Below are positions 5,505-39,189 of a DNA stretch of 64,000 nt, piece after piece. Both the position numbers and the translations under genes were made by a program. The stretch lies in IMG/VR virus record IMGVR_UViG_3300025009_000896, positions 19,189 to 83,188 of that record. One strand, written 5' to 3'. The notes beneath the pieces were generated by a model. That model saw only the letters and a list, made by a program, of their open reading frames with translations, was not told the origin of the DNA and made no database searches. The stretch is from a virus. Positions within the stretch are counted from its first letter, which is position 1. Every line of letters begins with the position of its first letter.

Positions 5505-5779
5505 TGCCCCTCTCCCTACTGCCATAGCGGTAATATTAGCTGAAAAGCACTTATATTCCATGAAAAACGCTTATAAGCAGCTATAATCATTATAAATGTC
5601 CCAATCTTGGTAGCCACGGTACTTAAATAGGAACATTTTTAATGATAAAGGTGATGGCAACACGTTAAAACCGCAAGACCCGGTACACATCTTGATGTAT
5701 CGGGTCTCGAAACTCCTTCTTCCGATTATGGAAAGATGAGCACCGCAAAGGTAATAAAAAATAAGCAGCAGCGTCTTAT

Positions 5780-18239: not shown

Positions 18240-19384
18240 AAGAAGCCTTTACACACATCTATGATACGAATGTGTGGGGATCAGACGAAAGCGCATCAGG
18301 AACAGGATCAGAAATGGGAAGCACAAGAGACATAAGAGAAAATCTGCCAATACTATTTGAAAAGTATAACATCAAAAGTCTATTAGACATTGGCTGTGGA
18401 GACTTTAATTGGATGAGAACTATCGTAGGTGGCCTTGATAGCTACTTGGGGATAGATATTGTCTGCGGAATAGTACAGAGAGATAGGTCTCTATACGAGA
18501 GCGATAAGGTTAAGTTTATGTGCAAAAACCTTAACGACATCAGCGAAGAAGTGTATCAGGACTTTGATGCGGTAATTATAAGGGATGTTTTTGTTCACCT
18601 TCCCCTTGCCGACGTTGCGGCTATGATTGACAAGCTAAGGTTAGGAAACATTCAGTATTTATTTTCGTCTACGTTCCTTGGTTGGGGCACGAATGTAGAC
18701 ATCAGCGCAGGACGATGGAGGCCGATTAACTTACTTAAAGAACCATTTAACCTACCACATCCGATAGAGACTATCAACGGATACTCGGAGCCATACTCGA
18801 TTACCGAAGGCGTTACGTTGACAGATAAGGCACTGCTTATGTGGAGGATGCCAAGGGTCTCAACCAACAAACATAATGTATTCTCCAACTATCATGCTCA
18901 TAGGCAGATAAGAATGATAAGACCGATCTCTGCGACTGACGTGGGCACTGGTGATGGTTATTGGGGTAAGGCTTTGAGCCTTTTGTGTCCTGAGTGTGCC
19001 GTTACGGGGGTAGAACTATCATCTAAGTGGTACGACCACTCTGCCCCTTTGGGTGTTTACTCTACAATGATAAACGATACGATGGTCAATGCCATAAATC
19101 AGGTTAGCGGAGACCTTATTATCTTCGGAGACGTGTTAGAACACGTACCGAAAGAAGATGCTATGGCTACCCTGTCTTTAGCTACGTCTCGATTTAGGTA
19201 TGTGATTATTAACACTCCGGTAGGGTTTGTGGCACAAGAGCACGAAGATACGGAGGAGATACACAGATGTGGGCTGACCCGTGAGGATATGAATGAGTTT
19301 GACGTTATGGAGTATCAGGAGTCTGATGGTAAAATTGAATATAAGGTGTTTAACTGCTTAATACGTGGCACTTATGGGGGTTAG
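18221..19384 (+). CDS. double class I SAM-dependent methyltransferase
   Basis: WG..ESASGTGS...LLDIGCGDFNWM in domain 1; DVGTGDGYWG...FGDVLEHV in domain 2. Confidence 0.85.
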   Translation: MGETNIKEAFTHIYDTNVWGSDESASGTGSEMGSTRDIRENLPILFEKYNIKSLLDIGCGDFNWMRTIVGGLDSYLGIDIVCGIVQRDRSLYESDKVKFMCKNLNDISEEVYQDFDAVIIRDVFVHLPLADVAAMIDKLRLGNIQYLFSSTFLGWGTNVDISAGRWRPINLLKEPFNLPHPIETINGYSEPYSITEGVTLTDKALLMWRMPRVSTNKHNVFSNYHAHRQIRMIRPISATDVGTGDGYWGKALSLLCPECAVTGVELSSKWYDHSAPLGVYSTMINDTMVNAINQVSGDLIIFGDVLEHVPKEDAMATLSLATSRFRYVIINTPVGFVAQEHEDTEEIHRCGLTREDMNEFDVMEYQESDGKIEYKVFNCLIRGTYGG

Positions 19385-30971: not shown

Positions 30972-31658
30972 ATGCAATTAAAGGATATAGATGTTTCAAG
31001 ACTATCATTCGACATATTTGATAGCGACTTCACAACGACTATAAAAGAAAAGATACCTGAGTTCAACGAATACGAAGGAGTGATACCTGAGTTAGACGTA
31101 TTCAGGTTTGTTGTTATAATGTGGGATATGAAGTCTCCTATGTTACGTGAGGTTGATGACTATTATGCACGTATGTATGCTACCGCATCAATGGTGGGGT
31201 TCCCAAGGACTAAAAACAACTTCAGCAAGGAGGCAGACGAGATAATCATAGGTAAGAATGAGAGCGTGAACAGGATGATAGTAGCCTATACTGCGTACAT
31301 GGGCGTACCCGAGTATCAGTACCTAATGGCTTATCAGGCGCTGTTCGCAAGTGAATACGCTAAAGTTTTGAGGGGCAAGGGCGGCAAGGACAGCGACAAG
31401 ATATTAGAGAACGCAAGCGGGAAGGTCACTAAGTTCACGAGGGCTATCTTCGGGTCGGGAGACTACGATGAGTACTCTTTGAGGAGACAGGCGTTGTATC
31501 AGAAGATTGAGAAAGACAAATTAAGATTAAGACCCGAGCAGATCATCAGGGACTTAACGGATAACGGAGATTTGCCTGAAGACTTTAACCCCTACGGTGA
31601 CTACTCTATCGATATAAATAAGGATATTAAGTTCGTTGGTGATGGCAAAGAAGGTTGA
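30972..31658 (+). CDS. putative terminase small subunit or packaging-associated protein
   Basis: Directly upstream of and overlapping TerL; positional inference only. Confidence 0.45.
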   Translation: MQLKDIDVSRLSFDIFDSDFTTTIKEKIPEFNEYEGVIPELDVFRFVVIMWDMKSPMLREVDDYYARMYATASMVGFPRTKNNFSKEADEIIIGKNESVNRMIVAYTAYMGVPEYQYLMAYQALFASEYAKVLRGKGGKDSDKILENASGKVTKFTRAIFGSGDYDEYSLRRQALYQKIEKDKLRLRPEQIIRDLTDNGDLPEDFNPYGDYSIDINKDIKFVGDGKEG

Positions 31659-33978
31659 TTACACCGAACTTTACGTTCCGGCTGACACTGTTTTTGCAAT
31701 TAATAACCTCGATCCAGATCGAAAGACTATCGTTTTGTCTCTGCCCAAACCACCGAACGTAAACACTATTGATAATTTTGGCCTACACCCTGACGAACAG
31801 TATTTCAAACGGTGGAAGACACCTAAGAAGCTATTAACTATTGAAAAAGAGGTCTTAAGAGAACTTCAGGATATTCAAAAGGGCAACAGACAGGAGACTG
31901 TAACGGGGTATAAAATAATTGACAAGTTCTGGGATAAGGTAGAAGAAGAAAGGGACGACTTAGAGGCAGAGATAGACTTCATTAAGAAGCTGTGGTGGCA
32001 TAGGATGAACGGCTATTGGTTCTACAACGACGGCAAACCAACGTACATAACCGGAAGGCACTTCATGTTCCTGAACTTCTTTTATCAACCCGATATAACT
32101 ACTAACGACGGGTACCCTGAGTACAGAGACAGACACCGGAGGGAGTTTCTATTCAGAGAGTATCTGAGGCACGCTACCGAGACGTTTGCCAAGAGAGATG
32201 AAAGAGGGTGGGCTGTGCCTAATGCTGATGGTAGTTATGATATGATTGATGTGGGGTCGAGAGTAAGCTATGGAGACATACATCCTAAGTCCCGAAGGAA
32301 CGGTTCTACAATGATGGCATTGTGTGATATGATTGAAAGTTCGGAAAGGAGTTTTGGTATCTACTCTACTATAATTTCAAAAGACGGTGAGGCCACCGAG
32401 GAGCACTACAACCTTAAGCTACTTCCTTCGTGGGTAATGAGGCCGTATTTTCTTAAACCCGTGTGGCAGGGATCGTCCCAACCAACGCAGATAAAATATT
32501 TTCCTCCTAAAAACTACTACGGCAACGAAGCCCTGATGAGTGTCATTGACTACACCGTATCGGCCTCGGAGACTAAAAAAGATGGGTCTAAGTTTAATGG
32601 AGAACTCGTATGCGATGAGGAGGGCAAGGTTTCTGGATTAGGAGTCAACGTCTTACAGAGGTGGGACGTAAATAAGAACGCACTTGCCCTTGGTGACGGT
32701 ACTAAGATATTAGGATACTCTACTCACATCTCAACGGTAGAAGACATCAATGCTGCGGGTATGGCCTTCTTGGATATGCTTGAACTCTCTGACTTTTATC
32801 AAAGGGGAGAGAGTGGGCAGACTACATCAGGTCTTATGGCTCACCTGTATCCTTCTTATGACGGTCAGGAAAACTTCATAGATCGGTATGGTATGTCAGT
32901 CATTGACACCCCCACAGACCGACAGTGCCGCTTATCTCATTCAGCAATCTTCGCTACGCTTAAAAAGGGAGCCAAGCAATATCAACAGGAAAAGAGAGAT
33001 GACTTCTTAAAGAAGGGCACCCCTGCTGCTATGCAGTCTTATAGGGCTTATGTTAAGAAGTACCCGTGGAAGACAAGCGAACTCTATATGTCAACAGTCT
33101 CAGACATGGGCTTTGACTATGAGATACTTGACACCCGAATCATGGAGTTGAGGAAGATGAAGTCCTTGGGTAAGATGCCATATAAGGTCGGGAACTTCTA
33201 CCGTGAGGGAGACCCGTTAGAGGGTAGGGTATATTGGAAGACAGAACCCGAAGGGAAGTTTGAGTTATCCATGGAACTTAAGCCTGAAGAAGCAAATCTT
33301 AAACGTAAAACTTTGGTTTGGGATGGCACTAAGATGTCTATGGTGCCAGCTTGGGAGCCTGTTTATAAAACGAGGTTTACCGCAGGGGCTGATCCATTTC
33401 GTTTCAGGAACAGCAAAGACATCACCACTAATAAGCAATCTGATGGCGGAATAGCAGTATTATGGCACGATTTTTCTAAGCCCAATAAGTCAGAGAATAG
33501 GAAGTTTGTATTGTCATATAGGTATAGACCTCATACATTAGAAGAATACTGTGAGGACTGCATAAAAGTGTGTGAGTATTTTGGGGCTATGTGTTATCCC
33601 GAAAACAACCTCACAGGAGTATATGAGCACTTCATTAAGAGGATGAGGGGCGGATATCTTAAGTACGATCAAGACTCGATCACGGGTCGAGCAAAGGATA
33701 CCCCCGGATATTACGCATCTCCGGGAACAATAAACGACGGGATGTCCCAAATTAAAGATTACATAGTCTTCAATGGAGCAGAAGAAAATCACTTAAGTTT
33801 TTTGGAAGAGGTGCGTGGCATGAGAAGTGTAGATGATTTAACTAATAACGATAGGTTTGCAGCGCACATGGCCAGCTTACTCGGCGCCCTCAGCAGCTAC
33901 GGCAAGGCATCGGATTTTATGAATACTCAAACAATAGACCTCGGGAAAGTCTCTTGGTTACAAAAAAGATCATTTTAA
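31642..33978 (+). CDS. terL: terminase large subunit (crAss-like)
   Basis: GYWFYNDGKPTYITGRH.M.L; KSRRNGST Walker A variant; CDEEGK Walker B; nuclease AGADPF...SDG...YPENN...ND...A. Confidence 0.9.
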   Translation: MAKKVDYTELYVPADTVFAINNLDPDRKTIVLSLPKPPNVNTIDNFGLHPDEQYFKRWKTPKKLLTIEKEVLRELQDIQKGNRQETVTGYKIIDKFWDKVEEERDDLEAEIDFIKKLWWHRMNGYWFYNDGKPTYITGRHFMFLNFFYQPDITTNDGYPEYRDRHRREFLFREYLRHATETFAKRDERGWAVPNADGSYDMIDVGSRVSYGDIHPKSRRNGSTMMALCDMIESSERSFGIYSTIISKDGEATEEHYNLKLLPSWVMRPYFLKPVWQGSSQPTQIKYFPPKNYYGNEALMSVIDYTVSASETKKDGSKFNGELVCDEEGKVSGLGVNVLQRWDVNKNALALGDGTKILGYSTHISTVEDINAAGMAFLDMLELSDFYQRGESGQTTSGLMAHLYPSYDGQENFIDRYGMSVIDTPTDRQCRLSHSAIFATLKKGAKQYQQEKRDDFLKKGTPAAMQSYRAYVKKYPWKTSELYMSTVSDMGFDYEILDTRIMELRKMKSLGKMPYKVGNFYREGDPLEGRVYWKTEPEGKFELSMELKPEEANLKRKTLVWDGTKMSMVPAWEPVYKTRFTAGADPFRFRNSKDITTNKQSDGGIAVLWHDFSKPNKSENRKFVLSYRYRPHTLEEYCEDCIKVCEYFGAMCYPENNLTGVYEHFIKRMRGGYLKYDQDSITGRAKDTPGYYASPGTINDGMSQIKDYIVFNGAEENHLSFLEEVRGMRSVDDLTNNDRFAAHMASLLGALSSYGKASDFMNTQTIDLGKVSWLQKRSF

Positions 33979-33989
33979 TTTTTTATTAT

Positions 33990-33997
33990 TATCTTTG
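33990..33997 (+). promoter_or_regulatory. promoter -7 box for tRNA unit 1
   Basis: TATCTTTG; no clear -33 TTTG. Confidence 0.6.
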
Positions 33998-34001
33998 TGA
34001 C

Positions 34002-34052
34002 ATGAGAATGAATCAACATATAGAGCAGCCGATAAACTTACTTGGTGGGTGA
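34002..34052 (+). CDS. leader peptide 1 (MRMNQHIEQPINLLGG)
   Basis: Short ORF between promoter and terminator; core QHIEQPI matches downstream tRNAs Pro, Ile(UAU), His, Glu, Gln. Confidence 0.75.
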   Translation: MRMNQHIEQPINLLGG

Positions 34053-34072
34053 GGTAACTCTATATTGTATAT

Positions 34073-34103
34073 AGCCCTCCCCACAAGGAGGGTTTTTTGT
34101 TTT
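34073..34103 (+). terminator. attenuator terminator 1
   Basis: AGCCCTCC-CCACAA-GGAGGGTT followed by TTTTGTTTT. Confidence 0.85.
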
Positions 34104-34104
34104 A

Positions 34105-34189
34105 CGGAGTGTAGGTCTGTAGCTGGTAGCAGTCCTGCCTTGGAAGCAGGTGGAGCAATCCCTCGTCGGTTCGATCCCGGCCACTCCGA
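34105..34189 (+). tRNA. tRNA-Pro(UGG) with enlarged variable region
   Basis: Acceptor CGGAGTG/CACTCCG; anticodon arm CCTGC-CTTGGAA-GCAGG; GGTTCGATCCC T arm. Confidence 0.85.
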
Positions 34190-34194
34190 CTTAT

Positions 34195-34265
34195 TGAGGC
34201 TTCGTTTAACGGTAGGACGCACGGCTTATACCCATGTAATCAGAGTCCAATTCTCTGAGCCTCAA
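34195..34265 (+). tRNA. tRNA-Ile(UAU)
   Basis: Acceptor TGAGGCT/AGCCTCA; anticodon arm CACGG-CTTATAC-CCATG. Confidence 0.8.
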
Positions 34266-34267
34266 CT

Positions 34268-34340
34268 GTGTCAGATGCTCGTATGGACAGAGTGACGGAT
34301 TGTGACTCCGTTAGAAGCCAGTTCAAATCTGGTCTGACAC
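34268..34340 (+). tRNA. tRNA-His(GUG)
   Basis: 8-bp acceptor including G-1 (GTGTCAGA/TCTGACAC); ACGGA-TTGTGAC-TCCGT. Confidence 0.88.
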
Positions 34341-34345
34341 CCTAT

Positions 34346-34416
34346 GTTCGGTTCGTCTATCGGTAGGACGGCGGGTTTTCATCCCGTAAAGGCGAGTTCG
34401 ATTCTCGCACCGAATA
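34346..34416 (+). tRNA. tRNA-Glu(UUC)
   Basis: GTTCGGT/ACCGAAT; GCGGG-TTTTCAT-CCCGT; GTTCGATTC. Confidence 0.9.
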
Positions 34417-34421
34417 CATAT

Positions 34422-34492
34422 TGCCCTGTCGTATAGAGGTGGTACACATGGCTTTGAACCATGCGGAGAAGGGTCAGTACCTTCCGGGGCAT
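34422..34492 (+). tRNA. tRNA-Gln(UUG), atypical T loop
   Basis: TGCCCTG/CGGGGCA; CATGG-CTTTGAA-CCATG; T arm GAAGG-GTCAGTA-CCTTC. Confidence 0.8.
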
Positions 34493-34501
34493 CAAAATAA
34501 A

Positions 34502-34532
34502 TTTGCATATTAAATTAAAAGTATTATCTTTG
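34502..34532 (+). promoter_or_regulatory. promoter for tRNA unit 2
   Basis: TTTG-N19-TATCTTTG. Confidence 0.85.
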
Positions 34533-34551
34533 CAGTAATTAAGGCATAAGG

Positions 34552-34626
34552 ATGCAAATGGTAAGAAAAAATATGGTGAATATTGACCGCACAGGCGCAA
34601 CCGTGCGAAAGGGTATCCCCATATAG
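34552..34626 (+). CDS. leader peptide 2 (MQMVRKNMVNIDRTGATVRKGIPI)
   Basis: 22 of 24 residues belong to the 10 amino acids served by the downstream tRNAs. Confidence 0.8.
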   Translation: MQMVRKNMVNIDRTGATVRKGIPI

Positions 34627-34651
34627 TTCTTTGAAAGGATTATTAAGGCGG

Positions 34652-34683
34652 ATGCCCTCACAAAATGGGGGCATTTTTATTTT
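34652..34683 (+). terminator. attenuator terminator 2
   Basis: ATGCCCTCA-CAAAA-TGGGGGCAT followed by TTTTATTTT. Confidence 0.85.
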
Positions 34684-34753
34684 GGCTTATAGTTTAATGG
34701 TAGAACGCCTCGCTGATACCGAGGTAATTCAAGTCCGATTCTTGGTGAGCCAA
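34683..34753 (+). tRNA. tRNA-Ile(GAU)
   Basis: TGGCTTA/TGAGCCA; CCTCG-CTGATAC-CGAGG. Confidence 0.85.
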
Positions 34754-34759
34754 CAACAT

Positions 34760-34830
34760 TGTGGGGTAGAGTAACGGTAACTCGTGGGGCCCATAACCCC
34801 AAGCTGAGGGTTCAACTCCCCCTCCCGCAA
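34760..34830 (+). tRNA. tRNA-Met(CAU), initiator-like
   Basis: TGTGGGG/TCCCGCA; TGGGG-CCCATAA-CCCCA with consecutive G-C pairs. Confidence 0.85.
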
Positions 34831-34836
34831 CTAATT

Positions 34837-34910
34837 GGGAATGTAGCTCGTATGGAAGTAGCTACGGCCTGTTAAGCCGAAGGTAGAAGGTTCGAGTCCT
34901 TCCGTTCCCG
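34837..34910 (+). tRNA. tRNA-Asn(GUU)
   Basis: GGGAATG/CGTTCCC; ACGGC-CTGTTAA-GCCGA; GGTTCGAGTCC. Confidence 0.88.
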
Positions 34911-34914
34911 CAAT

Positions 34915-34986
34915 GCTCTTATGGTGTAATGAACAGCACAGGGGTCTTCTAATCCCTTAGTTTGGGTTTGATTCCTAATAGGAGCA
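34915..34986 (+). tRNA. tRNA-Arg(UCU)
   Basis: GCTCTTA/TAGGAGC; anticodon loop CTTCTAA. Confidence 0.78.
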
Positions 34987-34991
34987 CAAAT

Positions 34992-35066
34992 GCCTTCGTC
35001 GGCCCCTTGGTGGGGAACCAGACTGTCACTCTGGTAAAACAGACGGATCGTAACCGTTCGGGGGCG
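34992..35066 (+). tRNA. tRNA-Asp(GUC)
   Basis: GCCTTCG/CGGGGGC; CCAGA-CTGTCAC-TCTGG. Confidence 0.82.
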
Positions 35067-35069
35067 CAA

Positions 35070-35144
35070 GGGCTGTTCGTATAGTGGCTATTACTTCTGT
35101 TTTGCAAGCAGGAAACGAGATTTCGATTATCTCACAGTCCACCA
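35070..35144 (+). tRNA. tRNA-Ala(UGC)
   Basis: GGGCTGT/ACAGTCC with G3:U70 identity pair; TCTGT-TTTGCAA-GCAGG; encoded CCA. Confidence 0.88.
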
Positions 35145-35146
35145 AT

Positions 35147-35218
35147 GCGGGATAGGTGTTGACACATACACAGGAGTCTTCCAAACTTCAGTAGACGGAG
35201 GGTTACCGTCATCCCGCT
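35147..35218 (+). tRNA. tRNA-Gly(UCC), atypical D and T loops
   Basis: GCGGGAT/ATCCCGC with U73; GGAGT-CTTCCAA-ACTTC; T arm GACGG-AGGGTTA-CCGTC. Confidence 0.75.
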
Positions 35219-35222
35219 CTAA

Positions 35223-35293
35223 GTGATCGTAGCAAATCGGTTATGCCCCGCCCTTTTAAGGCGGTGAGATTGGTTCGACTCCAATCGGTCACA
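35223..35293 (+). tRNA. tRNA-Lys(UUU)
   Basis: GTGATCG/CGGTCAC; CCGCC-CTTTTAA-GGCGG; GGTTCGACTCC. Confidence 0.9.
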
Positions 35294-35298
35294 CAAAT

Positions 35299-35371
35299 GC
35301 GCTCATAGCATAATGGAAAGTGTGCAAGGCTACGAACCTTGGCGGTTGGAGTTCGACTCTTCATGGGCGTA
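35299..35371 (+). tRNA. tRNA-Arg(ACG)
   Basis: GCGCTCA/TGGGCGT; CAAGG-CTACGAA-CCTTG. Confidence 0.88.
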
Positions 35372-35376
35372 CTAAT

Positions 35377-35448
35377 GCTCCATAAGCATTGATGGCGATG
35401 CGCTAGTCTTGTAAACTTGAAAGCAGGGTTCGATTCCTTGATGGAGCT
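35377..35448 (+). tRNA. tRNA-Thr(UGU)
   Basis: GCTCCAT/ATGGAGC; CTAGT-CTTGTAA-ACTTG; GGTTCGATTCC. Confidence 0.88.
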
Positions 35449-35468
35449 CAGGTGGAATTTACAAACTA

Positions 35469-35500
35469 TTTGGAGGTTACAAATCTTTTGTATATCTTTG
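35469..35500 (+). promoter_or_regulatory. promoter of the inserted HNH gene
   Basis: TTTG-N20-TATCTTTG. Confidence 0.75.
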
Positions 35501-35504
35501 TGTT

Positions 35505-35924
35505 ATGGAAAAGAAAAAAGAATGTCCTAAATGTGGAATTAAAAAAACAATAGATTATTTTACTAAGTCTAAATCGCGCAAGGATGGGTTTGGGTCTTTT
35601 TGCCTAGAGTGTGGAAGAAAATACGGGCGGCTTCATTATAAAAATAATAAAGCTGAATATATTAAAAGAATATCCTCTAACAAAGAAAGGGTTCGTGATC
35701 TTTATATAACTCTTAAAAAGTCATATGTATGCAGTAAGTGCGGGGACAATAGATGGTATGTGTTAGATTTTCATCACGAAGGAAATAAGGAATCTGACAT
35801 AGCCCATATGGCATCGGAGGGATATTCAATAGATTCCATTAAAAAAGAGATAGAAAAATGTATAGTGTTATGTTCTAATTGCCACAGAGAATTACATTAC
35901 AAACAAAATGGGGGCATAGTTTAA
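35505..35924 (+). CDS. HNH homing endonuclease inside the tRNA array
   Basis: CPKC...CLEC zinc finger; CSKCG...LDFHH...EIEKCIVLCSNCHRELH; 3' end overlaps tRNA-Val. Confidence 0.9.
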   Translation: MEKKKECPKCGIKKTIDYFTKSKSRKDGFGSFCLECGRKYGRLHYKNNKAEYIKRISSNKERVRDLYITLKKSYVCSKCGDNRWYVLDFHHEGNKESDIAHMASEGYSIDSIKKEIEKCIVLCSNCHRELHYKQNGGIV

Positions 35925-35979
35925 TTGGCAAAACGTTTGTGTTACATACAAGTCATGACGTTCGAGTCGTCTGCCCCTA
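35910..35979 (+). tRNA. tRNA-Val(UAC)
   Basis: GGGGGCA/TGCCCCT; TTTGT-GTTACAT-ACAAG; GTTCGAGTC. Confidence 0.8.
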
Positions 35980-36016
35980 CTAATATTGTTCGATTCCAGT
36001 AGAGACTACAAGTTTA

Positions 36017-36048
36017 TTTGCATATATTAAAAACAATGATTACCTTTG
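36017..36048 (+). promoter_or_regulatory. promoter for tRNA unit 3
   Basis: TTTG-N20-TACCTTTG. Confidence 0.85.
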
Positions 36049-36055
36049 CCTTGAA

Positions 36056-36115
36056 ATGAGAAATTGTTGGTCATATAGTTCGTTTTTACTCTTGCTCTCA
36101 AAGCGAGGTAGATGA
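36056..36115 (+). CDS. leader peptide 3 (MRNCWSYSSFLLLLSKRGR)
   Basis: Core CWSYSSFLLLLS; downstream tRNAs are Leu, Leu, Ser, Tyr, Ser. Confidence 0.8.
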   Translation: MRNCWSYSSFLLLLSKRGR

Positions 36116-36137
36116 CCTATATATCCATATAGCATAG

Positions 36138-36168
36138 ACCTCGCCCATAAAGCGGGGTTTTTTATTTT
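36138..36168 (+). terminator. attenuator terminator 3
   Basis: ACCTCGC-CCATAAA-GCGGGGT followed by TTTTTATTTT. Confidence 0.85.
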
Positions 36169-36244
36169 GCTCCGGTAGCCCAATTGGTAGAATGGCAACG
36201 GGTTTAAGCCCCGTTCAGTGTCGGTTCGAATCCGACTCGGAGTA
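36169..36244 (+). tRNA. tRNA-Leu(UAA), short variable loop
   Basis: GCTCCGG/TCGGAGT; ACGGG-TTTAAGC-CCCGT; GGTTCGAATCC. Confidence 0.88.
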
Positions 36245-36249
36245 CAAAT

Positions 36250-36325
36250 GCCGCAGTAGCAGAATTGGCACGTGCGTTAGTCTTAGAAACTAATAGTTAT
36301 GTGAGTTCGAATCTCACCTGCGGTA
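36250..36325 (+). tRNA. tRNA-Leu(UAG), short variable loop
   Basis: GCCGCAG/CTGCGGT; TTAGT-CTTAGAA-ACTAA; GTTCGAATC. Confidence 0.88.
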
Positions 36326-36329
36326 CTAA

Positions 36330-36421
36330 GGATGGGTGAACCCCAGTTGGCCTAAGGGGGACGGTCTTGAAAACCGTAGGTCGCTCAAAACGGCGTGGGG
36401 GTTCGAGTCCCTCCCCATCCG
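36330..36421 (+). tRNA. tRNA-Ser(UGA)
   Basis: GGATGGG/CCCATCC with G73; ACGGT-CTTGAAA-ACCGT; long variable arm. Confidence 0.9.
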
Positions 36422-36427
36422 CAATAT

Positions 36428-36496
36428 GGGAGTAATTCTTTGGAGAAGACGGGTCTGTAACACCCCAAATAGAAAGTTCGATGCTTCCTACTCCCA
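36428..36496 (+). tRNA. tRNA-Tyr(GUA), compact or degenerate
   Basis: GGGAGTA/TACTCCC; CGGGT-CTGTAAC-ACCCC; short D and variable regions. Confidence 0.65.
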
Positions 36497-36501
36497 CTAA
36501 T

Positions 36502-36586
36502 GGAGGGCTGCTGTAATGGTATCAGAGCGGTTCGCTAAACCGTCCGTCAGCAATGGCGTGGCAGGGTTCGACTCCCCCGTCCTCCG
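36502..36586 (+). tRNA. tRNA-Ser(GCU)
   Basis: GGAGGGC/GTCCTCC with G73; GCGGT-TCGCTAA-ACCGT; long variable arm. Confidence 0.85.
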
Positions 36587-36635
36587 CACTGATTTCTCAC
36601 ATTCACTATCTTTGTGGATATAAAAATATCCGCAA

Positions 36636-38993
36636 GTGATTAGACTCGAAAAGTATATCGGCGGGATAAGCCCAAGTAGAGACATAGCCCCCGAGAAAAA
36701 GACAGAAGTATATTGTAGAAAAAATGCCGAGTTTCTGTATGGTCTTTGGTGCGGATCGGCCACAGCTTGGGGCTATGACTCCCTCTCGTTTTTTAATGAG
36801 ATGCGGCAGTATAGCAATGGGGCTCAGGATACAAATCAATATAAAAGTTTTTTAACCAACTCGGGGGCAAATAACTCTGAGACTTTTAGTCTGTATGATA
36901 ATGATGCAGGCATAACGCAACGAGCAAAACGCGACGGATATTATAACCTGCTATGGCAGAATCTTTCTCCTGCGCCGAAGATTCTCAATGCATTACACGG
37001 GGCTTTGGGTTCTTATGATTACGATCTTTACTGCGATACCATAGATGCCAATTCGAGGGGATTGGTAGAGTTTGAAAAGTTTAAGAAGTTTCACGAGGCT
37101 CGTGATATAAAGTGGCAAACGGAATATAAAACTAAGGCAGGTATCCCCGTCGACGAAGACGCTAACTTTCCTAAGACACTTGAGGAATTAGAAGCCTTCT
37201 CCGCAAGGGAAGGGTTTAAACTGAATATAGCCCGTGCTATGCAGAAGGTGCTAAGGCATGGGTTTAATGTCAGCGATTGGGACGGGTCTATCAGGAAGAA
37301 GCTGTTAGACGACCTTATTACTTTAGGCTACTGCGCCGCAGAAGACTTGTATGACGACGAAGATAGGCTGTTTAAAACACAATGGCTTGACCCCGCAAGG
37401 ACTGTGATGCAATTTTCCCACGAGAAAGATTATTCGGATGCAGAATATGGTGGGCACTTCTCAGAGTGGACAATCTCTAATGTAAGGCGTAAAAGACCTG
37501 ATCTTACTGAAGATGAGTTGTATGCTTTGGCTAAAAACAATAAGGGCAATTTTAACAACCCAACAATACAGTGGGGGGAGAGAACGAGTATGCTTGACAT
37601 AACAAGTAACTCTTACCTTTATGATGACTTCAAGGTAGCAGTGTTTAAGGCTTATTGGATAGATACCGACACTTACAAGAGCCTCTACTATAACAACAAC
37701 TCCGGTCGGGAGATGGTCAAAGAGGTGGGGTATGATGAGAAGATAACCCCCTTAACCAAAAACCAAATAGCTAAAGGCAAAAAGCAAGAGGTAAAACAGA
37801 CTAAAATCAGGGTTGTTTATCAGTGTTCATGGGTAGTGGGGTCTGAGATATGTTGGGATCATGGTAAGCTATTGATGGGTGCAAGGCCGCAGCCGTCTAA
37901 GCCTAAGATACCTATCCACGTTGAGCAGTTGCTACAACCTTCTATTGTCTACAGGCTTAAGCCTATCTTAGACTCAATAGCCTTGACGTGGCTACAGCAT
38001 CAGAACTCTATGGCTAAGATGATAGAGAAGGGCTATGCCGTGAATATGAGCATGTTGATGAATGTAACGATGAATGGGAAGGATGCATTAGACCCTGCTG
38101 GTGTTTTAAATATGTGGAAGCAGACGGGGATTCTACCTTATATGTATGGTGGGGCTAATGGGCAATACCCGGGTGGGGCCGCTATTCCCGTCACTCCTAT
38201 TGACGGAGGATTAGGGAATAGAATACAGGAGACCGCTATGGCCTTAGAGACTAACTTCAAGCTAATTGAGGAGATAGTGGGGATAAACCCTGTTGCAATG
38301 GGGTCTACTCCTACTAAAGACTCACAGGTAGGTACTACCGAGATGGCGATGCAGGCCACATCCAACGTGCTTAAACCTATAGTAGAGGGTATGTTCGAGA
38401 TCAAGCAGAGTCTTGGTTCAAGTTTAATGTTAAGAACACAGATAGGTCTTAGGGTAGATAAAGACATAAGAGATGCCTATGCAGGTATTATCTCTCCTTC
38501 TGATATTAAGTCGTTGGTTTTGGCAGAACACAATAGTGTTCAGTATGGCATTAGCCTTAAGGCCAAGCCTGATGATAAACGTAAAGCTACGCTGCTTAAC
38601 TTCATTACTCTTGAAGTAGAGAAGGGCACATTGGGTTCACCGGAAGGAATGTACTTTGCCGAAAGATTAGAATCGGGTGCAGACATGATAGAACTCCGTC
38701 AGGAGATAGCCTATGCAATAGAAAAAGGACAGCAGCGTAAGATGCAAGAGTCGTTGGCTACTATCCAAGAGCAGAATAAGGGTATGCTTGAAAACGAACA
38801 GCTTAAGGGGCAGAACGAACAGGCTAAGATCAATGCCGAGGGACAGGTGAAGATGGCTGAAGAAGCCCTAAGAGGGGATATAAAGCATAAGTTACAGAGA
38901 CAACAGAATAATGCAGAATTAATGAGCAGACTCTTTGATGATGTGGCTGCTGAAAAAGAAATAAAGAATGACAACACCAGAAGACAGGCTTAA
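36636..38993 (+). CDS. portal protein (crAss-like)
   Basis: 785 aa between TerL and capsid; R.Y..G.Q...YK; IEEIVGIN...GSTP; Q-rich coiled-coil C-terminus; promoter TATCTTTG at 36607. Confidence 0.8.
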   Translation: MIRLEKYIGGISPSRDIAPEKKTEVYCRKNAEFLYGLWCGSATAWGYDSLSFFNEMRQYSNGAQDTNQYKSFLTNSGANNSETFSLYDNDAGITQRAKRDGYYNLLWQNLSPAPKILNALHGALGSYDYDLYCDTIDANSRGLVEFEKFKKFHEARDIKWQTEYKTKAGIPVDEDANFPKTLEELEAFSAREGFKLNIARAMQKVLRHGFNVSDWDGSIRKKLLDDLITLGYCAAEDLYDDEDRLFKTQWLDPARTVMQFSHEKDYSDAEYGGHFSEWTISNVRRKRPDLTEDELYALAKNNKGNFNNPTIQWGERTSMLDITSNSYLYDDFKVAVFKAYWIDTDTYKSLYYNNNSGREMVKEVGYDEKITPLTKNQIAKGKKQEVKQTKIRVVYQCSWVVGSEICWDHGKLLMGARPQPSKPKIPIHVEQLLQPSIVYRLKPILDSIALTWLQHQNSMAKMIEKGYAVNMSMLMNVTMNGKDALDPAGVLNMWKQTGILPYMYGGANGQYPGGAAIPVTPIDGGLGNRIQETAMALETNFKLIEEIVGINPVAMGSTPTKDSQVGTTEMAMQATSNVLKPIVEGMFEIKQSLGSSLMLRTQIGLRVDKDIRDAYAGIISPSDIKSLVLAEHNSVQYGISLKAKPDDKRKATLLNFITLEVEKGTLGSPEGMYFAERLESGADMIELRQEIAYAIEKGQQRKMQESLATIQEQNKGMLENEQLKGQNEQAKINAEGQVKMAEEALRGDIKHKLQRQQNNAELMSRLFDDVAAEKEIKNDNTRRQA

Positions 38994-39189
38994 GTGGGCG
39001 TTTAATATACTCGCTAAGGGTGGTTTAGATTCCGTGGATTTGTATGCAGAGTTAGGCAAGACCGAGGCTTTGGTGGGCGGTATGGGTCTTATGTCTCCAC
39101 CTCCGATGGCTCCGTCAGTCAATTCCGGTATTTCCGAACAACCACCTGTTACGAAGAATCCACAGAACTTAAACAATTTAATGCAGTAA
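38968..39189 (+). CDS. small hypothetical protein
   Basis: ORF overlapping the portal stop. Confidence 0.45.
   Translation: MTTPEDRLKWAFNILAKGGLDSVDLYAELGKTEALVGGMGLMSPPPMAPSVNSGISEQPPVTKNPQNLNNLMQ

Follow-up and report, generated by a model that had tools for sequence, protein, structure and literature searches.

Organization of the tRNA array

The stretch analyzed here comprises 64,000 nucleotides (nt) of the IMG/VR virus record IMGVR_UViG_3300025009_000896 (positions 19,189 to 83,188 of that record, hereafter the window; the whole genome is a single contig of 83,188 bp). Among the sequencing runs listed as containing the stretch, none is an RNA run, and the best are four DNA runs of a groundwater metagenome, which may be its source. 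The window carries a tRNA array in three modules, located between the large terminase gene (31636-33978, phrog_6681) and the portal gene (36636-38993, phrog_6547), and the element under study is a predicted leader-peptide attenuator at the head of the second of these modules. ARAGORN called 18 tRNAs, a total that is the same for the window and for the whole genome. Rfam added two, at 34422-34492 and, slightly under the gathering score, at 36428-36496, whose anticodon loops were judged by eye to be those of Gln and Tyr, respectively. Module 2 has the following features.

34502-34532, plus strand: Bacteroidota-type promoter, TTTG-N19-TAtcTTTG (-33 and -7 motifs), from the motif count and conservation in relatives
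34552-34626, plus strand: leader open reading frame (ORF), 24 codons plus TAG, MQMVRKNMVNIDRTGATVRKGIPI, from the ORF list and relatives
34571-34584, plus strand: region 1, codons N7 to I11, 5' strand of the 1:2 hairpin (RNAalifold columns 38-51 with 79-91)
34588-34607, plus strand: small inner hairpin, codons R13 to R19 (RNAalifold columns 55-62 with 68-74)
34610-34624, plus strand: region 2, codons K20 to I24 plus the first base of the stop codon, with region 1 or region 3 as partner (antiterminator columns 77-86 with 117-126)
34623-34643, plus strand: apical hairpin within the antiterminator loop, from the minimum-free-energy fold of the window sequence
34650-34682, plus strand: intrinsic terminator with 5' arm (region 3) 34650-34660, 3' arm (region 4) 34666-34676, then a U-tract; G-C makes up 5 of its 11 pairs
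34683-35144, plus strand: tRNA-Ile(GAU), Met(CAU), Asn(GUU), Arg(UCU), Asp(GUC), and Ala(UGC) (ARAGORN, Rfam tRNA)
35146-35222, plus strand: divergent tRNA-Gly(UCC)-like sequence with an aberrant T-loop, from alignment with the Gly(tcc) genes of the related loci L038 and L044
35223-35449, plus strand: tRNA-Lys(UUU), Arg(ACG), and Thr(UGU) (ARAGORN, Rfam tRNA)
35469-35924, plus strand: inserted HNH endonuclease gene (ORF 35505-35924; phrog_2255, E 1.2e-32) with its own promoter-like motif at 35469-35500
35909-35980, plus strand: tRNA-Val(UAC), last gene of module 2 (ARAGORN, Rfam tRNA)

The terminator hairpin (34650-34676) precedes the sequence TTATTTT, and the U-tract abuts tRNA-Ile(GAU), which starts at 34683. 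Each unit of promoter and terminator lies between two tRNA blocks, as would suit plain operon punctuation, in which terminators end the preceding tRNA transcripts and promoters restart transcription without any regulation. Such punctuation is extremely improbable here: because the order is promoter, ORF, terminator, and tRNAs, the terminator blocks its own promoter, and the conserved alternative pairings described below would be left unexplained.

The leader ORF starts at the ATG at 34552 and contains the alternative in-frame ATG at 34558 that an initial annotation of this DNA, made by a model from the sequence alone, had pointed out. Adenines occupy positions -3, -6, -11, -14, and -15 before the first ATG. 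This context fits a translation start of the kind described in PMC7366714 for Bacteroidetes, where starts lack a Shine-Dalgarno sequence.

The initial annotation had also described an operon of 11 tRNAs. Ten of these (Ile-GAU, Met, Asn, Arg-UCU, Asp, Ala, Lys, Arg-ACG, Thr, and Val) were called by ARAGORN within 34683-35980; the Gly(UCC) candidate at 35146-35222 is divergent and escaped both ARAGORN and the Rfam tRNA model, the latter also when 91 bases were searched at E≤10. In relatives, ARAGORN called Gly(tcc) genes at the corresponding position, and the candidate aligns with them; its acceptor stem and CTTCCAA anticodon loop are preserved, and its T-loop is without the usual TTCGA motif. 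Locus L017 likewise has an uncalled Gly(UCC)-like copy.

Composition of the leader peptide

As annotated from ORF 34552-34626, 22 of the 24 leader residues belong to the ten-amino-acid set M, V, R, K, N, I, D, T, G, and A, the exceptions being Q2 and P23, and both Arg codon families are present, with AGA at codon 5, CGC at codon 13, and CGA at codon 19. A composition test against phage ORF segments of the same length, proposed in the initial annotation, set this leader apart. The set accounts for a fraction of 0.595 of the residues in the 74 long ORFs of the genome, and none of the 19,652 24-residue windows in these ORFs reached 22 residues within the set (maximum, 21) or contained an in-set run of 20 residues as found in leader 2 (maximum, 17); the corresponding binomial probability for 22 of 24 is 5.7e-4. 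Leader 2 ranked first among the 547 short ORFs of the genome for both in-set count and in-set run.

The claim that all ten amino acids have a downstream tRNA stood at the level of residues, with Gly doubtful, and was less complete for codons: under standard wobble, the anticodons of the operon read 18 of the 24. The unread codons are GGC, ACC, GGT, CAA, CCC, and ATA. Within codons 4 to 16, 12 of 13 are cognate to operon anticodons, with a background share of 0.42 in the phage ORFs (P=2.4e-4).

Conservation of leader 2 in related loci

Related loci were collected in two ways. An alignment search with the portal gave 41 viral loci (a single-protein portal search of viral contigs gave none), of which two, L017 and L038, with 45 to 46% portal identity, carry full arrays and three carry remnants; in L017 and L038, the same three gaps hold the same three kinds of leader as in the window. 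A degenerate pattern covering codons 8 to 17 of leader 2 returned the same two viral contigs plus 21 metagenome loci; leaders 1 and 3 of these loci lay outside any nucleotide search pattern. Scanning genome contigs with the leader-2 pattern gave no matches and hence no clue to the host, and a nucleotide search of the phage collection with 34400-36200 likewise returned none.

All 23 related loci keep the leader-2 ORF, its frame, and its stop position. The first tRNA after leader 2 is Ile(GAU) in 24 of 24 loci, directly adjoining, and tRNA-Gln was called by ARAGORN directly before leader 2 in 19 of the 24. Each of the 16 distinct DNAs is open in this frame up to one shared stop position, occupied by TAG in five, TGA in eight, and TAA in three, and the start codon is ATG in 15 and TTG in one. 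In codons 18 to 24 the variable columns number 2, 1, and 6 at first, second, and third codon positions, respectively. The promoter is conserved as well: the full motif was found in 15 and the -7 motif in all of the 16 distinct upstream regions, 17 to 20 nt before the start codon.

These observations bear on the alternative that the unit is a noncoding leader, a small RNA (sRNA), or a pre-tRNA processing signal in which the ORF is incidental. Units of a promoter and an intrinsic terminator are, according to passages of PMC7366714, a hallmark of intergenic sRNAs in Bacteroides, and the RNA of the leader unit in the window is more stable than its shuffled versions (z = -3.0). We nevertheless consider a noncoding unit very unlikely, given that three different stop codons are all used at one fixed position, that the start codon and its A-rich context are conserved, that the core of the module-1 leader varies at third codon positions only (0, 0, and 4 variable columns by codon position), and that no Rfam family matches 34493-34682 at E≤1, the leader families Trp_leader, His_leader, Thr_leader, Leu_leader, and others included.

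Alternative RNA structures and ribosome-footprint folding

The structural alignment comprised 18 distinct sequences, in which most region-1 columns were fixed by the leader search pattern. Its RNAalifold consensus contained a long 1:2 hairpin, the inner hairpin, and the terminator, which were 98.6% paired over the 18 sequences. The 1:2 hairpin, conserved and unlisted in the initial annotation, joins codons 7 to 11 to codons 21 to 24 plus the first base of the stop codon; on its region-1 side, 99.1% of the cells are paired. The antiterminator that had been annotated was recovered in the minimum-free-energy fold: AGGGTATCC (34610-34618) and GGATGCCCT (34650-34658) form 9 bp, one of them G-U, and thereby sequester the 5' arm of the terminator. 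The corresponding columns, 77-86 with 117-126, are 99.4% paired, a value that falls to between 37 and 56% if the partner is slid by 1 to 3 columns, and the core terminator helix is 100% paired in the 18 sequences. As to individual pairs, inner-hairpin pair 57:72 is C-G in nine sequences, U-A in five, and C-A in four, with both bases at third codon positions, and represents one compensatory pair, and antiterminator pair 84:119 is U-G in nine, U-A in seven, and C-G in two. Relatives also show hairpins at the apical position (34623-34643); their columns in the MAFFT alignment were out of register and were left uncounted.

For the ribosome scan, 29 nt (-15 to +13 around the A-site codon) were forced to be unpaired, and the probability of the terminator helix was computed for each position. 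In the window, this probability is at most 0.22 with the A site at codons 2 to 16, 0.89 at codon 17, and approximately 1 afterwards. Stall positions that cut it to one third or less were found in 17 of the 18 family members, and all 18 regain a probability of at least 0.89 at codons 18 to stop. After shuffling of all sequence upstream of the terminator, the switch was reproduced in none of 60 shuffles in each of two sequences. The sensing window predicted in this manner, codons 2 to 16, contains every member of the ten-amino-acid set and, apart from Q2, no residue foreign to it.

In the naked RNA, the terminator is dominant in 16 of the 18 sequences, and so is the 1:2 hairpin; the exceptions are the window and L049, with terminator probabilities of 0.24 and 0.09, respectively, where the antiterminator prevails and the 1:2 hairpin is weak (probability, 0.18 in the window). 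These two sequences carry ATC instead of ATT at I22, and because of this replacement pairing 1:2 is weakened and pairing 2:3 strengthened in both.

Sister modules 1 and 3

The two flanking modules are built in the same way.

33989-34492, plus strand: sister module 1, with a -7 motif, leader MRMNQHIEQPINLLGG (34002-34052), terminator 34073-34094, and tRNAs Pro, Ile(UAU), His, Glu, and Gln (ARAGORN, Rfam, ORF, and terminator searches)
36017-36587, plus strand: sister module 3, with a promoter, leader MRNCWSYSSFLLLLSKRGR (36056-36115), terminator 36136-36160, and tRNAs Leu, Leu, Ser, Tyr-like (36428-36496), and Ser (ARAGORN, Rfam, terminator, and promoter searches)

Each leader is written in the amino acids of its own module. 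In the window, the longest runs of own-set residues in leaders 1, 2, and 3 are 7, 20, and 12, and runs for foreign sets do not exceed 4; the own-set run is the longest in 10 of 10, 11 of 11, and 7 of 7 distinct peptides of leader families 1, 2, and 3, respectively. In footprint folding of the window sequence, the terminator of module 1 is lost over N-Q-H-I-E-Q and that of module 3 over W-S-Y-S-S-F-L-L, i.e., over their own-set codons. The QHIEQP leader is present at every locus with enough sequence upstream of tRNA-Pro. A search of viral contigs with the module-1 core pattern gave 22 stretches, of which only four are true leaders (L017, L038, L031, and L036); the other stretches fall within coding sequence of no relation and were set aside.

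The module-3 leader also contains C, W, and F, for which there is no matching tRNA anywhere in this genome. Relatives have ARAGORN-called Trp, Phe, or Cys tRNAs behind leader 3; judged by eye, anticodon loops of module 3 resemble those of Ser(gct), Phe, and Cys in L038 and those of Ser, Trp, and Cys in L017 (compared were 36056-36115 and 36587-36636 of the window, 6590-6905 of L038, and 4070-4380 of L017). Since relatives carry these tRNAs at the end of module 3, the phage seems to have lost its Cys, Trp, and Phe tRNAs recently. Read from the leader and tRNA sequences and counting the Trp, Phe, and Cys tRNAs of relatives, the three leader cores together cover the 20 amino acids without overlap, except that Ile is in two of them.

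The two Ile entries differ in codon. The Ile codon of the module-1 core is ATA in 10 of 10 distinct DNAs, and that unit carries Ile(UAU); for I11 of leader 2, where the search pattern would have admitted any ATH codon, all 16 distinct DNAs have ATT. In module 1 of L048, L053, L055, and L064, a tRNA with the anticodon CAT takes the place of Ile(TAT) and the leader keeps ATA; this tRNA may be of the Ile2 type (lysidine-modified CAU), reading ATA. In module 3 of L050, a tRNA-Arg(tct) called by ARAGORN after Leu(taa) was considered as an exception and rejected, as its mismatched anticodon stem and long variable arm make the call unreliable; it is probably a misread class II tRNA.

The behavior of leader 3 in relatives is informative for the possibility that the three ORFs are small protein genes, encoding functional micropeptides with their own terminators, and that the tRNAs are expressed by constitutive leak-through. 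The conserved ORF, frame, and stop, with variation mostly at third codon positions, would be expected of protein genes too. However, the module-3 peptides of relatives (CWSYSSFLLLLS, LWCSYSLFSLLLL, LWCSYSFSLLLLL) reorder their residues and still keep their composition within L, S, Y, W, C, and F, the C-terminal tails of the leaders coincide with the strand that pairs with the terminator, and the match of composition to the downstream tRNAs would have to be coincidental in all three modules. Micropeptide genes are thus highly improbable.

A further explanation concerns what is sensed. Leader and terminator might gauge translation in general, responding to whether ribosomes follow the polymerase (as upon host shut-off, a ribosome-targeting defence, or load), with the amino acid make-up being secondary. 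Sampling of inputs by single codons argues for low specificity of this kind, and as the untranslated RNA favors the antiterminator in the window and in L049, any loss of translation would open the gate there. A general gauge, however, needs neither 20 amino acids partitioned among three leaders nor a choice between isoacceptors such as ATA in module 1 versus ATT in module 2, and 16 of the 18 sequences form the terminator when untranslated; we therefore regard it as unlikely.

Variation of the array and phage host

The position of the array varies. It occupies the gap between terminase and portal genes in the window and lies directly upstream of the portal gene in L038; in L017 and L031, it lies upstream of a gene that resembles, by eye only, the terminase of the window. 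To judge from these positions, the three-module cassette seems to have moved as one block. In L031 (300-760) and identically in L036, a module-1 leader and terminator are followed by an apparent Pro-Trp chimeric remnant, tRNA-Phe, and a second tRNA, whose anticodon loop is that of Cys by eye and which stands directly before the terminase gene.

The HNH endonuclease gene of module 2, with its own promoter-like site, splits tRNA-Val from tRNA-Thr and the other tRNAs; L038 has no such insert, tRNA-Val (5591) directly following tRNA-Thr (5516-5588). The 3' end of the HNH gene overlaps tRNA-Val by 16 nt. Its mRNA may be leaderless, as the promoter-like -7 motif ends just 4 nt before the ATG. The arrays of relatives contain insertions at varying sites, comprising a 132-amino-acid ORF, gaps of 0.65 kb, and ORFs of approximately 160 amino acids, which from their sequences look like mobile, endonuclease-type elements. 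They are located as follows.

L038: 6201-6597
L044 and L051: gap between tRNA-Lys and tRNA-Arg(acg)
L055 and L064: gap after tRNA-Pro
L054: gap after tRNA-Ile

The portal protein matched, at 22% identity, those of 84 cultured phages, all infecting Flavobacterium, Cellulophaga, or Maribacter; the 85th matching record is an uncultured Caudoviricetes sequence. The motif TTTG-N18-22-TAnnTTTG, which is of the type that PMC7366714 gives as the primary sigma factor consensus in Bacteroidetes, occurs 12 times in the window, with 1.58 occurrences expected and 12 reached in none of 100 shuffles. From the portal matches together with the sigma-type motif, the host of the phage is very probably a member of the Bacteroidota. 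In the long ORFs of the phage, ATA is the commonest of 1,469 Ile codons (ATA, 780; ATT, 442; ATC, 247), and this richness in ATA is a plain reason for extra decoding capacity. AGA and AGG dominate among the Arg codons, and the usage of Ile and Arg codons fits the tRNAs carried.

Proposed mechanism

The leader-peptide attenuator proposed in the initial annotation is supported by the conserved promoter, the conservation of the ORF, the exclusive pairings, the sensing window at codons 2 to 16, the sister modules, and the relatives, and module 2 is probably a ribosome-mediated transcription attenuator that controls a phage tRNA operon. What the sequences and their folds show is the set of parts and its conservation, pairings that exclude each other, and a predicted sensing window whose amino acids agree with those of the operon; translation of the leader ORF, stalls at single codons, and a rise in read-through upon stalling would have to occur for the attenuator to work.

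Specifically, a host RNA polymerase of the sigma-A type would initiate at the TTTG/TAtcTTTG promoter, and the short 5' end of the leader transcript would be translated at once. A ribosome reaching the stop codon would mask region 2 (34610-34624), so that the terminator (34650-34676) forms and transcription stops 6 nt upstream of tRNA-Ile. If the aminoacyl-tRNA for any one of the ten amino acids of the set were scarce, the ribosome would be held within codons 2 to 16, covering region 1 and freeing region 2 to pair with the 5' arm of the terminator; the resulting antitermination would let the polymerase enter the genes for the same scarce tRNAs. The newly made tRNAs would quicken translation of the leader and close the gate, and the circuit would thus act as a negative-feedback OR gate over ten amino acids.

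Several points weigh against this attenuator. The leader search pattern allows synonymous variants only, so the invariance of codons 8 to 17, and with it that of most of region 1, arises by construction, and the full arrays found independently of the leader are those of L017 and L038 only. The other 10 distinct leader-2 peptides have in-set runs of 13 to 16 rather than 20, which makes the count of 22 of 24 particular to this genome; the relatives listed have Leu at position 18 and E, Q, G, or K at position 20, and given these shorter runs, V18 and K20 of the present leader do not belong to the conserved signal. To judge from its divergence, the Gly tRNA of the phage may be dead, and the codons GGC (G15), ACC (T17), and GGT (G21), in or near the sensing window, are noncognate to the UCC and UGU anticodons under strict wobble. 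Moreover, most inputs are sampled by one to three codons, which, by analogy with classical attenuators, suggests weak stalls. Covariation is thin: in the antiterminator no both-sided change was counted, and in the other helices there is one pair with both-sided changes, the observed score being reached by 6 of 500 shuffles; true covariation is sparse because the sequences are closely similar. The footprint (-15 to +13) and the transcript start in the ribosome scan were assumed, and folding was treated at equilibrium, not kinetically. In this model L064 shows no switch (minimum terminator probability, 0.67) and L058 only a partial one, and the gate of the window and L049 would be open without translation, the predicted naked RNA favoring the antiterminator. 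Finally, L031 and L036 keep a module-1 leader before a decayed remnant (Pro-like by eye, Phe, and a second tRNA), so the leaders do not track every change in the tRNAs.

Comparison with known attenuation systems

Multivalent leader-peptide attenuators are known from enterobacteria, where the thr leader senses Thr and Ile and the ilvGMEDA leader senses Ile, Val, and Leu. Module 2 resembles these in its short, putatively translated leader with regulatory codons in or before region 1, in its predicted exclusive 2:3 and 3:4 pairings with an alternative 1:2 pairing that is weak in this genome, in the intrinsic terminator before the regulated genes, and in the predicted sensing of more than one amino acid. 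In contrast to them, it would regulate tRNA genes rather than biosynthetic enzymes and sample ten amino acids, mostly by one to three codons, rather than runs of two or three amino acids; it also resides in a phage of Bacteroidota, lacks a Shine-Dalgarno sequence, and has no sequence relation to these leaders, as no Rfam leader family matches it at E≤1. With the trp leader (RF00513) it shares the logic of four regions, whereas the set sensed and the genes regulated differ, and module 2 itself gave no match to that family. Sister module 3 (36062-36165) has a sub-threshold match to it, scoring 27.7 bits where the gathering score is 41 (E 0.02).

A T-box binds a single uncharged tRNA via a specifier codon, without a ribosome, and T-boxes regulate genes for aminoacyl-tRNA synthetases and amino acid metabolism. 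They are similar to the proposed attenuator of module 2 as a form of transcription attenuation that reports the state of tRNA; module 2 differs in having an ORF and many codons. Direct, T-box-like reading of the codons by tRNAs was considered and rejected, as 32000-39000 gave no Rfam T-box match at E≤1 and the ORF has a conserved stop.

No leader-peptide attenuator acting on tRNA genes turned up in full-text literature searches, whose coverage leaves out older scans and subscription journals. Among the published cases checked, the nearest is the long tRNA operon (trn) of Anabaena sp. PCC 7120, which is induced by stress and controlled by the DNA-binding repressor TrcR (PMC8421152, PMC10272220). 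It, too, is an additional tRNA array, off by default and turned on when translation is impaired; it differs in its use of a repressor, and neither "attenuat" nor "leader peptide" occurs in PMC8421152 or PMC10272220. The idea that Escherichia coli tRNA-Phe genes might carry an attenuator was not borne out, pheU and pheV being described with leaders of 3 to 4 nt in PMC7049720. The "tRNA operon" of PMC3082878 concerns supercoiling at proM, not attenuation, and was discarded.

Implications

Leader-peptide attenuation is a textbook mechanism for amino acid biosynthesis and related operons; here it would be applied to the supply of tRNA itself. The leader family is widespread in environmental metagenomes, with 21 loci found in a single pattern scan. 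We tentatively raise the possibility, which we hold to be rather doubtful, that the three attenuators together form a monitor of decoding capacity for 20 amino acids, each channel sampling every amino acid of its own tRNA block by no more than one to a few codons and therefore firing only when a host tRNA species is nearly gone, e.g., through anticodon-nuclease cleavage or phage-induced turnover, and replacing exactly that block; the array would then be a self-regulating counter-defence or repair circuit and not a supplement to codon usage. That the gate is tuned to tRNA cleavage, as the initial annotation suggested, is speculation. If the attenuator operates as proposed, it would explain how phages dose their tRNA arrays, would constitute a natural OR gate with ten inputs, and would mean that ribosome-coupled attenuation operates in Bacteroidota, whose translation starts are free of Shine-Dalgarno sequences. 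It would also offer a handle on why phages carry tRNAs, i.e., for codon supplementation or for rescue from tRNA-targeting defences.

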